From Eledone cirrhosa (Eukaryota): DNA of 64,000 bases. A program made the translations under genes and the position numbers. Positions 3,236 through 58,658 of the stretch are shown piece by piece. The first letter of the stretch is position 1. Every line of letters begins with the position of its first letter. A model generated the notes under the pieces. That model saw only the letters and a program-made list of their open reading frames with translations. It was not told where the DNA came from and searched no databases. Location of the stretch: assembly GCA_964016885.1 (NCBI GenBank), contig OZ024746.1, forward strand, positions 85,994,001 through 86,058,000. The letters run 5' to 3'.

Positions 3236-3500
3236 TTCAGAAGGTATACGTTGCTGACGATAGCTAATAAGCTTGAAACTAGTACAGCGTTCCTTTGTCA
3301 GTGTTGAACAAATGAGCAACGATGGTTGCTAGACACCGTACCGCTAAATTCGGGATGTTTGTTTACAAACACACCGAGCATTATAATAAATGTTCGGTGA
3401 ATTCATACGTACATATATATATGTGTGCATGTATGTATATATATATATACATACTACTGTACGTCTGTATTCATATATGTATGTACGTATACATACTTAT
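3236..3500 (+). mobile_element. Penelope-like short (pLTR-type) element, HHR family A, copy 1
   Basis: Near-identical to 7195-7545, 16938-17305 (reverse complement) and 17458-17675; carries a hammerhead and AATAAA; ends in (TA)n. Confidence 0.65.
3248..3290 (+). ncRNA. Minimal type-I hammerhead ribozyme (family A)
   Basis: ACGTTG-CTGACGA-tAGCTaataAGCTt-GAAACTAGTA-CAGCGT: core CUGANGA/GAAA, stem I ACGTTG/CAGCGT, palindromic stem III ACTAGT, GUA cleavage triplet. Non-canonical U.U pair at the base of stem II. Confidence 0.75.
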
Positions 3501-3514
3501 ATATATATATATAT

Positions 3515-3702
3515 ATAGGAACAAGTAAGACCCCGACGGCTGAGCTCAAGCCGTTTCGACGGCTAATTCTGGATTGCCGTCGAAACGGCTTGAGCTCAGC
3601 CGTCGGGGTCTTACTTGTTCCTATTACCCACTCTACTACCCTAAGTATTGAGTACTTTGGTGCGTTATGGTCCACCTGGTTCCTTACCACATTTCCTTCG
3701 TT
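3515..3702 (+). mobile_element. Fold-back Penelope-like element, HHR family B, copy 1
   Basis: 49-bp perfect inverted arms (3515-3563/3576-3624) plus ~80-bp tail shared with 56023-56213; contains an HHR 3' half GAAACGGCT-tgagctc-AGCCGTC; embedded in (TA)n. Confidence 0.65.
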
Positions 3703-4863
3703 ATATATATATATATATATATATATATAAACAATTAAGTTAAAGATGTACATCCATATATGTATACTGAAATACTAGTATGTATATGAATACACACACG
3801 TATACATATGTAGGTGTACCAAGTTTATATATATATATATATATATATATATATATATATGTTGTTGGCCCTCCGTCGTTTCTGACGACAAGAGCTTCAA
3901 TTAATTCAAAGAACGGAGTTGCCCGTTCGTGAAATTAACGTGTAACTGGTTGAACACTTGACACACACGTGCACTATAACGTAGTAATGACAAAATGAGT
4001 GACATAGTCGGTCCTTTGAATTACATGTACAACTGTAAACGGAGGTTTGTGAAATAATGTTTTGCGTGCTCAATGACACAACGAACTCACAATCTTACGA
4101 TCGTGAGCCGAACACTTAAACCATTAACCCAACACACACAATCACACACACACACACACACACACACACAGACAGAGTCTGACGAAGGCATGTCGTCTCG
4201 ACTTACTCTATGTTACAGCCAACAGGTATATCTGGAAATGCGTATAATGTCAGTTTATTCAAAAAATTTAAAATTAGAAAAAGTAGTACCCTCTCTTCAT
4301 ATTTATTCACACACACACACACAAACACAAACAACCACACACACACGACTCACGCACATAGACACGCACATGTACACACACACACACACACACACACACA
4401 CACACACACACACACACACACACTCACACACAGGCAACAGCACATACACACACACACACGCGTATATATAAAATAAGTACTGCAAGTAATATTTCTATAG
4501 TTTGATTAGTTTTGTACCTTGTCCTATGTATTACAATATATATTATATATTACAATACATACGACAAGGTCTATTATCATCTATATTATAATATATAACC
4601 AGCAATTTCTGTCTGTCTGTCCGACAGTGGAAACACGTGCGCGCGTGGTTGCTATCTCTCTCTCTCTCCAGCTAACCCTCTCTTTTAGTCTGTCTGTTTC
4701 TCTCACTCTCACTCTTTCTCTTTGTAACACACTCACATTCCTCCCCCTCTATCGCTGTGACGAATGGGGAGATGAAGGAGGAGGAGGAGGAGAGAGTCAC
4801 TTCGTCAATTCACCTCTGCCTTTCTTTCTCTCCCCTCTCACTCCCTCATTACGTACAGACATT

Positions 4864-5035
4864 AGGGCGGTGGATTGGCAGAATCTGTAGAGAGTCGGAC
4901 ACCATGCTTCATAGCATGGAATTACGTCCCTTTACGGTCTGAGTTTAAATACCGCCGAGGTTAACTTTGCCTTTCATCCTCACGGGGTCGATAAAATAAA
5001 GTACCAGTAATGTACTGGGTAATTTGCTGGCCTTG
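4864..5035 (+). mobile_element. tRNA-derived SINE with Deu/Nin-like domain
   Basis: Head ggcggtggattggcag...ctgagtt(t)aaat, then ctttcatcctcacggggtcgataaaataaagtaccag (Deu-domain-like); more than 25 copies in the window. Confidence 0.8.
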
Positions 5036-5504
5036 TCTATATTATAAAAGAAAAGCTGTTTCTCCGTTTGTCTGTCCGTCACAGATATATTTAGAAGGAG
5101 TGAAACTAGATGGAATAAAAAGAAAGGTCACCCTTTTTTTTAAAGTTGAAAGGACAAAAGAGATAACTTATGTCATATATATATATTCTATTGCAAGTGT
5201 TAATGACGTAGAGATCTGAAGGAGGGAGGTGGTGGTGGTGGGGAGCCAGTGGAGAGGGACCAATATTGTGTCTGTAATATTCTTGCATAAGTGTGCTCTT
5301 GAATTGGGTTTTTCACATCATACCTCCACTGAGCCCCCCTCTCTCTCTATATATATATATATTATATATTATGGAATACTGTTGGCTTCTTGCTACAATA
5401 ATTTCTATACTTTTCATTTATATTATATATATATATATATATATATATATATATATATATATATATATATATGTATATATATAAATATCTAAAGTCTAAA
5501 GTTT

Positions 5505-5775
5505 GTCTTAAGCCGGAATGCTCATTTGGCCGGTGCTTATCCCGGTTTCATGGCGTGAAGCGACTGAGAGTACAAGACTCCCCCCCTGGACAGGACGCCA
5601 GTCCATCGCAGAGTTAACCTCCCCAGTTATTGCTGGTATTCATTTTCAGCTGAGTATACTGGAGCAACGTGAAATGAAGTGTTTTGCTCAAGAACACATC
5701 ATGCAACCCAGGAATCGAACGCACGACATTATAATCGTAAGTTCAACACCCTTAAACTAGGCTTCGTGCCTCCAC
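5505..5775 (-). mobile_element. tRNA-derived CORE-like SINE
   Basis: Reverse complement of 42533-42798 (ttcttgagcaaaacactt...gcgatggactggcgtcctgtccagggggg...gaaaccgggataagcaccggcc). Confidence 0.8.
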
Positions 5776-6025
5776 ACACACACACACACACACACACACA
5801 CACACACACACACACACACACACATATATGTATATATATATATGTATGTATAAACACGTGTGTGGACATGAATGAGAAGTGAAAATACTCAATACTAAAA
5901 ACAATATAAAATTTAGGAAACTGAAAACTTTACGAATTGTCATCCAACTTTCAGGTTTCCGATCTTCAGATTGGAATGAAGAAAAATACAATGTTGGCTT
6001 ATTAGTATATTGGGTTGAACCTCCG

Positions 6026-56022: not shown

Positions 56023-56213
56023 GGAAAAAGTATGACCCCGACGGCAGAGCTCAAGCCGTTTCGACGGCTATTTCTGGACTGAAATAGCCGTCGAAACGGC
56101 TTGAGCTCTGCCGTCGGGGTCATACTTTTTCCTATTTCCCAATCTACTACCCTAAGTATTGAGTACTCTGGTGCGTTATGGTCCATCTGATTCCTTACTA
56201 CAATTCCTTTGTT
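56023..56213 (+). mobile_element. Fold-back Penelope-like element, HHR family B, copy 2
   Basis: 52-bp perfect arms (56023-56074/56081-56132), loop TGGACT, tail shared with 3625-3702; lies within (TA)n. Confidence 0.65.
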
Positions 56214-56369
56214 ATACATATATATATATATATATACATATATATATATATATATATGTATATATATATATATATATGTAGGAGGTGAGTTTTATTGTAG
56301 TACAATAAAGCAATGCAGATATCGGATAAGTAACACTCTACAGTTTGTAGGACTGGAGTATATATAATA

Positions 56370-56710
56370 ATATATAAGATCAAAAGATGGTTAAAAGAGT
56401 TCCATGTATTTTATTATGGGCATTTCAAAAACAAATATCATCATGCAATAATATTTGCGTTTTCGTCAGATAAAATAGGGAGACATGATATGAGGGTTAA
56501 AACACACTTGTGAATAGTGCAGTTTTAAATCAACATAATTGATATGTTGATTTAAAACTGCACTATTCACAAGTGTGTTTTAACCTTCATATCATGTCTC
56601 CCTATTTTATCTGACGAAAACGCAAATATTATTGCATGATGATATTTGTTTTTGAAATGCCCATAATAAAATACATGGAACTCTTTTAACCATCTTTTGA
56701 TCTTATATAT
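56370..56710. repeat. 341-bp near-perfect palindrome (168-bp arms, 5-nt loop, one mismatch)
   Basis: 56370-56537 is the reverse complement of 56543-56710 except tgagggtt versus aaccttca. Confidence 0.95.
56603..56673 (+). ncRNA. Minimal type-I hammerhead ribozyme (family D); mirror copy on the minus strand at 56407-56477
   Basis: TATTTTAT-CTGACGA-aaacGCAAATATTAT-tgcatg-ATGATATTTGTtttt-GAAATG-cc-CATA-ATAAAATA: 8-bp stem I, long stem II, 3-bp stem III, AUA site. Confidence 0.75.
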
Positions 56711-58340
56711 ATATATATATATATATATATATATATATATATATATATATATATATATATATATATATATATGTATATATATATATGTATATATATATAT
56801 ATATATATATACACGTATGTTTGCGTGCAGGTGAGAGCGCGCGCCTGTGTATTTAAGTGTCTCTATACAAATACATCAAACTTATGCATACAAAAAAAAA
56901 CCTCATTTTTTGTGTCAGTGTGTTGCTATTTATTTACATTCTGAAACACAACCCCCCTCCCCTCATTCTCCCCCCCCCCCCCCTCTCTCTCTCTCTCTCT
57001 CTCTCTCTCTCTCTATATATATATATATATATATATATATATATATATATGTGTGTGTGTGTATGTGTGTATGTGTGTAAGTGTGTGTGTATGTATATCT
57101 CTCACCCCTCTCTCTCTTCTTCTCATATACATACACACACAGACGCCTCTCCCTTCTCATATATACATATATACATACATATATATACATATATACATAC
57201 ATATATATATATATATATATATATATATGTTTATATATGTTCCTGGTCGTTGAAAGATTAAATAGGAGATATCTCAACACCTCATTATTCTTTTATTTCC
57301 TACTTTTTTATCATTATTTTTCCTTATTCTTTTCCATTAACACCCTACGTCGCATATATATATGTATATATATATATATATATATATATATATATATATA
57401 TATATATATATATATATATATATATATATATACATATATATATATATATGTGTGTGTTGGTATGTGAGTGTGTATGTATGTATATAAATATACATATATG
57501 TATATATATATATATATACACATACATATATATATACACACAATTTATATAGGTACATACATACACACACTTTTATGTATATATATATATATATATATAT
57601 ATATATATATATAAATAAATACCTGTATATATATATATATATATATATATATATATATATATATATATACATATATATGTATATAAATACGCACACGCAC
57701 ATATATATATATATATATGTATATATATACATATATGTGTATGTATGTGCGTGTATATGTACTTGCGTGTGTGTGTATGTATGTCTATGTGTATGTACGT
57801 GTGTGTGTGTATGTGTACATATACAATTACACATACACCCTGGTGCCTCTCAAATGCTTTTTAACGACTAACTCTATATAGAAAACTCGTTACTACAGTA
57901 CCAGTAAGTAATGGCAAACAATATACGTCTGTTGATGACAGCTAAGACGACAAAAATATATGGATTTGTTGCACTTGCTTGCTTTGTCAGGAAATAATAT
58001 TAACTAACTCATAATATGATTGCCTAAACAACGTCTTTATCCTTTGTGTAGTTCTTTCTGATATTGTAAACATTGTAATTTATTAAGCACACCATTCCAA
58101 TACCCCCCTCCCCGCTCTGTCAGACACACACAGAAATACACACTTATTTACAAGTATACACATATATAAATAAACGTATAATTATATATACGATATATAT
58201 AAATATATATATACATTCATGCTGATGGCATATACATACACACATTCATACATGATGGCTGTCACCGAAATATATATAGCAGTATATCTATAATTTATAA
58301 TAAACGAAGCCAAATTTTACATATTTGACTTAATTATTTT

Positions 58341-58520
58341 TGCCAGTATCGGTAGAGGGTCGGACGCCATGCTTTCCAGCATAGTTACGTCCCTTTGCGG
58401 TCTGAGTTCAAATCCCGCCGAGGTTAACTTTGCCTTTCATCCTTACGGGGTCGATAAAATAAAGTACCAGTAATGTACTGGGTAATTTATGGCCTTGTGC
58501 CAAAAGTAGAAACAATTATT
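58341..58520 (+). mobile_element. Deu/Nin-like SINE
   Basis: Consensus-like copy lying between two family E hammerhead elements. Confidence 0.8.
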
Positions 58521-58605
58521 TTACATTATTACGGAGTAAACAAACGAACCTGCGTACGAAGTAAAATATGTAAAATTTGGTTGTTTATTACGAATTATAG
58601 ATAAG

Positions 58606-58658
58606 CTGCGATATATATTTCGGTGACAGCCATCATTGGCTGTGACCTCTTCAGGCAG
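58606..58658 (-). ncRNA. Minimal type-I hammerhead ribozyme (family E), intact core
   Basis: Minus strand CTGC-CTGAAGA-GGTcACAGCCA-atga-TGGCTGTcACC-GAAATATATATC-GCAG: canonical G-C at the stem II base, palindromic stem III, AUC site, followed by AATAAA. Confidence 0.82.

Follow-up and report, generated by a model that had tools for sequence, protein, structure and literature searches.

Hammerhead ribozymes have been described in the pseudo-long terminal repeats (pLTRs) of metazoan Penelope-like elements (PLEs) (Cervera and de la Pena 2014, PMC4209133), and PLEs of the Hydra clade are reported to carry hammerheads and to insert into (TA)n tracts (Craig et al. 2021, PMC8557442). According to work on an anole PLE protein, this enzyme cuts AT-rich DNA and extends both target strands, using two internal start sites whose spacing corresponds to the tail (PMC11167929); a tail at one end only had already been noted (PMC3846280, PMC8557442), and self-priming has been proposed for PLE inverted structures (PMC3846280). 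The largest published hammerhead count met in our comparison is 126,247, in the axolotl (PMC7229834). For cephalopods, 235 hammerheads found with Rfam are given for the giant squid (PMC6962438), the words 'hammerhead' and 'ribozyme' are absent from the main text of the Octopus vulgaris repeat annotation (PMC13282606), and no survey of cephalopod hammerheads was found in a literature search that fell short of most subscription journals. Here we analyze a 64-kb stretch of the 3.0-Gb Eledone cirrhosa assembly GCA_964016885.1 (contig OZ024746.1, positions 85,994,001 to 86,058,000; hereafter the window), in which about seven families of minimal hammerheads, designated A to G, had been predicted from sequence alone (hereafter the original prediction). 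These families were proposed to be concentrated in one intronic region and to represent short non-coding PLE derivatives targeting (TA)n. Our results make it very probable that the motifs of families B to G lie in the 3' ends of PLEs, that those of family A lie in a tandem unit of ~430 nt devoid of open reading frames (ORFs), and that the window is typical of a genome with well over 100,000 such motifs.

Results

Hammerhead motifs in the window

The listed sites are type-I hammerhead motifs, each reading as originally described (Table 1). A strict type-I descriptor identified eight cores in the window, including a minus-strand copy of family D (core at 56469) absent from the original list. Block-wise dinucleotide shuffles (n = 200) yielded a mean of 0.045 cores and none reached eight, so that the observed count does not match shuffled controls. 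Families A, D and E present regular type-I cores, F combines one with its short helix I, G and the full form of B are U3-A8 variants, and C harbors one additional base. The G core, UUGAUAA, is accompanied by a weak helix I; its interpretation as a decayed CUGAUGA was ruled out, since UUGAUAA is present in all 25 anchored copies (of 30). The 3' halves of B noted at 3582 and 56093 are indeed present, and a complete form occurs at other genome loci (L260, L269, L295), in which the core reads UUGA(C/G)AA, helix II is long and helix III, of 5 bp, is nearly palindromic. These complete copies rule out B as a half-ribozyme only or as a hairpin transposon. Two further B-like fragments, from older subfamilies, lie at 39059-39113 and 54575-54680.

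Several attributes assigned to the motifs hold only in part. The term minimal does not suit A, whose helix I is extended and includes an internal loop, nor B, C and D, with long helices II, and the tiny or palindromic helix III expected of most families is seen in many of them, the exceptions being C, in which it is non-palindromic, and B, with its 5 bp. A downstream AATAAA lies within ~110 nt for A, C, E, F and G, but not for B and the D plus copy. The adjacent (TA)n tracts are borne out, with (TA)4 no more than 210 nt downstream at 10 of the 12 sites checked.

The sequence variation among copies was examined for evidence of the hammerhead fold. A search of 67 stretches of 10 kb that placed no constraint on core positions 3 and 8 returned 65 matches, 58 of which present C-G or U-A at this pair (46 C3-G8, 12 U3-A8, 7 other); over 23 clusters, the pair is C-G in 17, U-A in five and inserted in one. 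Variation at N7 and H17 falls within catalytic rules, and changes in the helices compensate each other. Helix covariation was counted for A, B and E in alignments gathered by sequence similarity. One helix I pair of A occurs as UG (20), GU (5), AU (4) and CG (1), a value as high being found in 0 of 500 shuffles, and three two-sided changes were counted in B (7 of 500 shuffles). For A and B, the covariation anticipated by the original prediction is therefore present, and these counts are supportive of the fold, short of proof.

Table 1. Elements, hammerhead motifs and host exon identified in the window. Cores are those found with the strict descriptor unless marked otherwise.
Positions	Strand	Feature	Core	Predicted cut after
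3248..3290	+	A hammerhead in truncated A unit (~3238-3505)	3254	3284
3515..3569	-	B inverted short arm, tailless; 3' half of hammerhead		
3573..3701	+	B direct arm with GAAA, helix III, GUC site and tail; 5' core lost by truncation		3604
7288..7330	+	A hammerhead, A-U replacing U-G in helix I (subfamily); unit ~7191-7546	7294	7324
17136..17178	-	A hammerhead, helix III altered to AUUAGU; minus arm of head-to-head A pair (~16933-17459)	17172	17142
17585..17627	+	A hammerhead; plus arm (~17457-17677), broken by family C	17591	17621
17676..17725	-	C inverted fragment		
17730..17990	+	C 3' end and tail; hammerhead at 17761-17851 with long helix II and one surplus base in its core, CUGAAAGA	17766	17846
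27452..27589	-	SLC6 transporter exon; splits two element-bearing introns		
31318..31914	+	F, 5'-truncated 3' UTR of putative Neptune-type PLE; minimal hammerhead at 31793-31824 with ACGU as helix III and 2 bp in helix I	31795 (relaxed descriptor only)	31822
34132..35972	+	G, 5'-truncated, frameshifted putative Neptune-type PLE (RT end, CX4CxxC linker, GIY-YIG); U3-A8 hammerhead 35732-35773		35769
56020..56074	-	B inverted short arm		
56081..56212	+	B direct arm with tail; 3' hammerhead half, GUC site		56115
56278..56535	-	D minus arm with tail; hammerhead 56407-56477	56469	
56545..56705	+	D plus arm, tailless; hammerhead 56603-56673	56611	56665
58252..58340	+	E fragment, second; 3' hammerhead half		
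58559..58760	-	E 3' end; hammerhead 58606-58658; adjoins unrelated broken RT element at 58761	58654	58610
RT, reverse transcriptase; UTR, untranslated region.

Families B to G in truncated ends of Penelope-like elements

In longer genomic copies of B, D, E, F and G, RT and GIY-YIG sequence is found at a family-specific distance upstream of the hammerhead. PLE protein lies 732-761 nt upstream in B (13 rows, some of them duplicates), 939-1036 nt in D (three distinct insertions), 959-1067 nt in E (three distinct), ~1200-1460 nt in F (~11 distinct) and ~500-630 nt in G; rows of these searches include duplicates, and distinct insertions were counted separately. In C, whose 3' UTR spans ~2.6 kb, three loci share an RT/endonuclease (EN) region, 87-93% identical, upstream of a long low-complexity UTR or the C body. 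Since longer copies of all six families carry coding sequence upstream, the short copies are 5'-truncated insertions. The predicted link between hammerheads and PLEs is thus upheld for B to G, whereas the notion of short non-coding derivatives survives for A alone: B to G do not form short ORF-less tandem units, as coding sequence lies upstream and their 5' ends are ragged, and no such unit was seen in the loci examined. RT followed by a C-terminal GIY-YIG upstream of the hammerhead is the canonical arrangement of EN+ PLEs, here in copies that are all broken. The tandem of pLTRs is seen for B at one locus (L295), where two hammerheads 3.1 kb apart flank RT and EN coding sequence in a pLTR-ORF-pLTR layout, and inverted pairs and tails are found in B to E. 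The RT and GIY-YIG ORF at whose 3' end G had been placed is real, although 5'-truncated and broken by frameshifts and stops.

Clade markers were evaluated following PMC8557442. The linker CxCX5C is found in B, C, D and E, DKT in B and D, and RWR, which is RWK-like, in B. Hence B presents all Hydra-clade markers, D the DKT motif and the linker, and C and E the linker alone, and these four families appear to belong with the Hydra clade by motif. By eye, the RT of B resembles that of Hydra-1_Obim; a homolog search with it returned two proteins. In F and G, a CX2-5CxxC linker ahead of the C-terminal GIY-YIG, together with GxKF in G, points to Neptune-type elements.

Individual families show further features. 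C yielded 1,560 first-look candidates, the top matches being 98-100% identical, and a pattern search led to relatives (judged by eye, at 8 of 10 loci) that present normal cores, most with a palindromic helix III, ACAAUUGU. The two D arms in the window share a change that breaks the AUGCGCAU palindrome of the family. E was considered as the 3' end of the adjoining RT element at 58761-61162, an assignment ruled out by upstream sequence that is not common to 29 other E copies. Many E loci (L033-L060, and the window copy at 58760) start near one 5' position, often directly after (TA)n, in part an effect of query length; this common start may mark a truncation hotspot or a short sub-lineage.

Family A, an ORF-less tandem unit

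No PLE protein was identified upstream of A in any of 74 probe matches (eight query fragments). Same-strand copies are spaced 427-434 nt apart in 4 of 29 loci, and runs of up to seven copies, ~420-560 nt apart, occur among the genome matches listed. A thus presents ORF-less tandem units, each with a type-I hammerhead, and is by its structure a non-LTR retrozyme, as far as sequence organization can tell. Because A has PLE-type paired ends and head-to-head inversions, it is likely mobilized by the same enzymes as PLEs.

Genome-wide load and local density

The density of motifs was assessed in 59 evenly spaced 10-kb stretches of the genome. This sample contains 55 matches (1-6 in shuffles), or 6.0 per 64 kb versus eight in the window; resampling gives a probability of 0.11 that 64 kb holds nine or more, and the 80 kb flanking the window contain 10 matches. 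The window region is therefore no hotspot, contrary to the local concentration originally proposed. Nor is it a single intronic region: the exon at 27452-27589 encodes sequence 85% identical to an O. vulgaris SLC6 transporter, and a mapping of this protein against 144 kb of sequence puts the window in two introns of a minus-strand gene, with the upstream exon placed by a 55%-identity match.

Restricted to recurring families, the sample contains 47 matches in 15 clusters, which extrapolates to ~240,000 motifs genome-wide (bootstrap 157,000-330,000), or about one motif per 12 kb; overall, the samples contain some 5-6 motifs per 64 kb. Exact patterns run on the whole genome recovered 25,251 A and 84,267 D-like motifs (predicted from the sample: 30,477 and 76,191) and none with reversed controls, for a total of at least 109,518. 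Each family is high-copy, with 864-2,009 first-look candidates as lower bounds. At least 16 more recurring hammerhead clusters were seen in the genome samples (L231-L289, L339-L346), several with U3-A8 cores or long helices II and III, and decayed pieces resembling four further families (clusters 5, 7, 10 and 9) lie in the window at 15837-15915, 32248-32298, 39916-39987 and 54066-54099. Some loci (L098-L102 and L220-L223; L310, L312 and L313) have near-identical flanks 30-160 kb apart on C4 and C1 and are thus segmental duplications, or repeats of the assembly, that raise some of the locus counts.

Paired copies, tails and (TA)n junctions

Families A to E present two fixed 3' ends, located ~17 and 97 nt after the predicted cut site in B, 52 and 136 nt in C, ~45 and 137 nt in D, and ~61 and 150 nt in E; F has one 3' end only, and one inverted copy. 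In head-to-head pairs, a single arm carries the tail of 80-90 nt delimited by these ends in 48 of 49 pairs of B, 12 of 13 of C, 20 of 20 of D and 5 of 5 of E. Taken together, 85 of 87 pairs show the one-tail arrangement, as against about half expected if each arm chose its end independently; for A it is seen in 10 of 13 pairs, two of which are possibly segmental duplicates. Both ends also occur in copies outside pairs. Minority variants recur on both arms of a pair more often than on arms paired at random (29 observed against 4.4 in B, 25 against 2.8 in D, 20 against 4.3 in A and 3 against 0.2 in C), which points to one template for both. A search for the one-tail rule stated as a count, subject to the same reach into the literature as above, found none.

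Runs of TA at non-inverted 5' junctions were found in 10 of 18 copies of G, 8 of 15 of F, 8 of 20 of A and 6 of 22 of E, compared with a background of 7.8%. Being at the 5' junction, these runs (27-56%) support (TA)n as a target rather than a tail, and thereby the proposed targeting for these four families. In the window, families are nested or adjoin one another (A then B at 3238-3701; C inside A at 16933-17990; B beside D at 56020-56705), as expected if they share (TA)n targets.

Other repeats in the window

At 58761-61162 (minus strand) lies a non-LTR retrotransposon in broken form, whose RT domain is recognized by Pfam (RVT_1) and which is ended by family E just past its YxYLG motif; judged by its motifs, it looks R4/Dong-like. 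An interspersed repeat of 100-170 nt, likely a short interspersed nuclear element (SINE), occurs in ~30 places (e.g. 22289-22867, 43377-44689, 48441-48674, 58385-58523), often as head-to-head or tandem pairs. Minisatellite arrays lie at 6025-6789 (26-nt period), 18398-19597 (59), 37655-38776 (28-36) and 46759-47813 (52-64), and an interstitial (TTAGGG)8.8 tract at 15545-15597. Open frames at 32840-33379 (+), 37232-37684 (+) and 21255-21563 (-) had no match in a Pfam search; from their motifs, they are presumably pieces of the 3' part of long interspersed nuclear element (LINE) proteins. A general repeat search of the window was dominated by microsatellites.

Discussion

Based on published PLE work, the following sequence of events may be outlined. 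The GIY-YIG nuclease would cut (TA)n and RT would copy the RNA from internal start sites, usually stopping early and leaving short 3' stubs with the ribozyme. To this we add a proposal of our own for head-to-head pairs: a single RNA could serve both ends of the cut target, the distal start site being used by one end and the proximal by the other, which would yield a single tailed arm, and the two cDNAs would then be joined at their truncated ends. In A, D, E, F and G, the ribozymes would cut tandem precursor RNA by acting as dimers or with the aid of a protein, and in B they would cut as monomers. The dimer action that had been put forward is compatible with the former five families; B can fold its helix III as a monomer, and the helix III of C does not lend itself to it.

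Two-site priming on one RNA has, in our estimate, an even chance of being the origin of head-to-head pairs. Self-priming, or fold-back of a single nucleic-acid strand, is a possible but less probable source: it also predicts arms from one template and the near-perfect palindromic junctions seen in B, yet by itself it accounts neither for one arm stopping 80-90 nt short in nearly all pairs nor for the occurrence of both ends outside pairs, and the anole protein is reported to extend both target strands from two start sites (PMC11167929). Whether the hammerheads act at all is a separate matter. We consider it unlikely that they are mostly inert passengers with an inherited fold and little or no cutting in vivo, although C has been amplified recently despite its extra core base and non-palindromic helix III, in the company of normal relatives, an insertion after A6 is reported to leave low activity (PMC3088659), and hammerhead mutations did not block insertion in vitro, with no RNA-seq ends at the cut site, in the account of PMC11167929. 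Against this stand the 3-8 pair, kept as C-G or U-A, the rule-bound variation at N7 and H17 and the compensating helices, which point to selection on catalysis in master lineages. The amplification of C makes it likely, for its part, that cutting is dispensable for spreading.

There is little prospect that the seven families, wholly or for the most part, represent separate retrozyme-like lineages, short and non-coding, that borrow PLE enzymes. This holds for A, and short copies also predominate in B, C, D and E, many E copies sharing their 5' start, so that short non-autonomous sub-lineages may exist; the ragged 5' ends of B to G, running into RT and EN in longer copies, already largely refute it for these families. 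That the ribozymes are locally enriched and kept to regulate host SLC6 pre-mRNA is highly improbable. The host-gene strand does carry three complete cores (A 17172, D 56469, E 58654), but local density equals that of the genome, the copies belong to young repeat families in which they do not stand out, and the helix III palindrome is damaged in two of these three sense-strand copies. The strand bias of motifs inside the gene (~12 antisense versus 6 sense, counted by hand) is not significant.

The assignment of the motifs to hammerhead-bearing PLE ends and a retrozyme-like unit has to be set against several observations that weigh against it. The Rfam check proposed for the original families gave no match to any family, hammerheads included, at the gathering score in the window and 10 motif-rich loci, and, leaving aside 329 further weak matches, none of the 150 listed for the window at E <= 5 is a hammerhead, nearly all being microRNA models on (TA)n and (CA)n tracts. 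Folding z-scores range from -2.9 to +0.2, a modest signal, and F does not adopt the hammerhead in its lowest-energy fold. Covariation in E amounts to one two-sided change and is weak (26 of 500 shuffles on score), and within-family alignments are young and related, so that shuffle counts overstate support. Pfam identified RVT_1 or GIY-YIG in only three of nine PLE protein pieces, all weakly, and clade assignments follow motifs rather than a tree. At 5' junctions, TA runs were found in 0 of 17 copies of D and 1 of 14 of C, a negative outcome, and (TA)n targeting does not extend to these two families on this evidence. Variants shared between arms could also reflect the structure of subfamilies, copying by fold-back or gene conversion at a later time.

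A broader interpretation is that this genome has among the heaviest hammerhead loads (at least 110,000, ~240,000 by sampling, in 15 or more families), that its pairs reveal two-site PLE priming, that A shows retrozymes riding on PLE enzymes and that C is a ribozyme knock-down that has spread. Taken jointly, we hold these four propositions tentatively, at somewhat short of even. PLE hammerheads, (TA)n targeting and tails have already been published, and the new elements here are the cephalopod load and the one-tail rule. The load matters in that roughly one motif per 12 kb goes undetected by Rfam at its gathering score; the axolotl genome is about ten times larger. The one-tail rule makes the origin of PLE inverted structures directly testable with the in-vitro system of PMC11167929, C and its normal-core relatives offer a natural test of the role of the ribozyme in mobility, and A would add to the cephalopods a retrozyme whose ends are of PLE type. 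As speculation, intronic head-to-head pairs would give rise to extended RNA duplexes on which A-to-I editing might act.

Comparison with known systems

The families described here resemble the metazoan PLE hammerheads of PMC4209133, as reported there, in their type-I topology and tiny or palindromic helix III, in the coexistence of many sequence families per genome, mostly as solo truncated copies, and in the occurrence of opposite-strand pairs 100-700 bp apart and of the U3-A8 core variant; the 2-bp helix I of F is also that of Drosophila virilis Penelope. They differ in number, with 2,000-9,000 hammerheads per genome in that account versus at least 109,518 here from two exact patterns, and in the core insertion of C, and B joins U3-A8 with a 5-bp helix III, whereas the same source assigns large helices III to fungal and protist PLEs.

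B to E share with the Hydra clade, as delineated in PMC8557442, the linker (B, C, D, E), the DKT motif (B, D) and the RWK-like motif (B), as well as a C-terminal GIY-YIG, (TA)n insertion and hammerheads. Their tails of 80-90 nt exceed the 30-40 nt given there, the long 3' UTR of C departs from the Hydra-clade elements described, and the hammerhead of Hydra-1_Obim, the one cephalopod Hydra family listed in that work, matches none of A to G by eye. F and G resemble Neptune, judged by motifs, in the linker before a C-terminal GIY-YIG, in GxKF (G) and in microsatellite targeting, and the U3-A8 core sets G apart from Neptune-type PLEs; Neptune itself is presented as paraphyletic in PMC8557442. Family A, finally, resembles the animal non-LTR retrozymes portrayed in PMC7229834 and bioRxiv 10.64898/2026.07.22.740005 in having no ORF, head-to-tail units and a type-I hammerhead with a 6-bp helix I plus internal loop, a 4-bp helix II and a short palindromic helix III, and differs from them in its longer unit (420-500 nt versus 170-400 nt), a mismatch at 10.1-11.1, PLE-type paired ends and head-to-head inversions.

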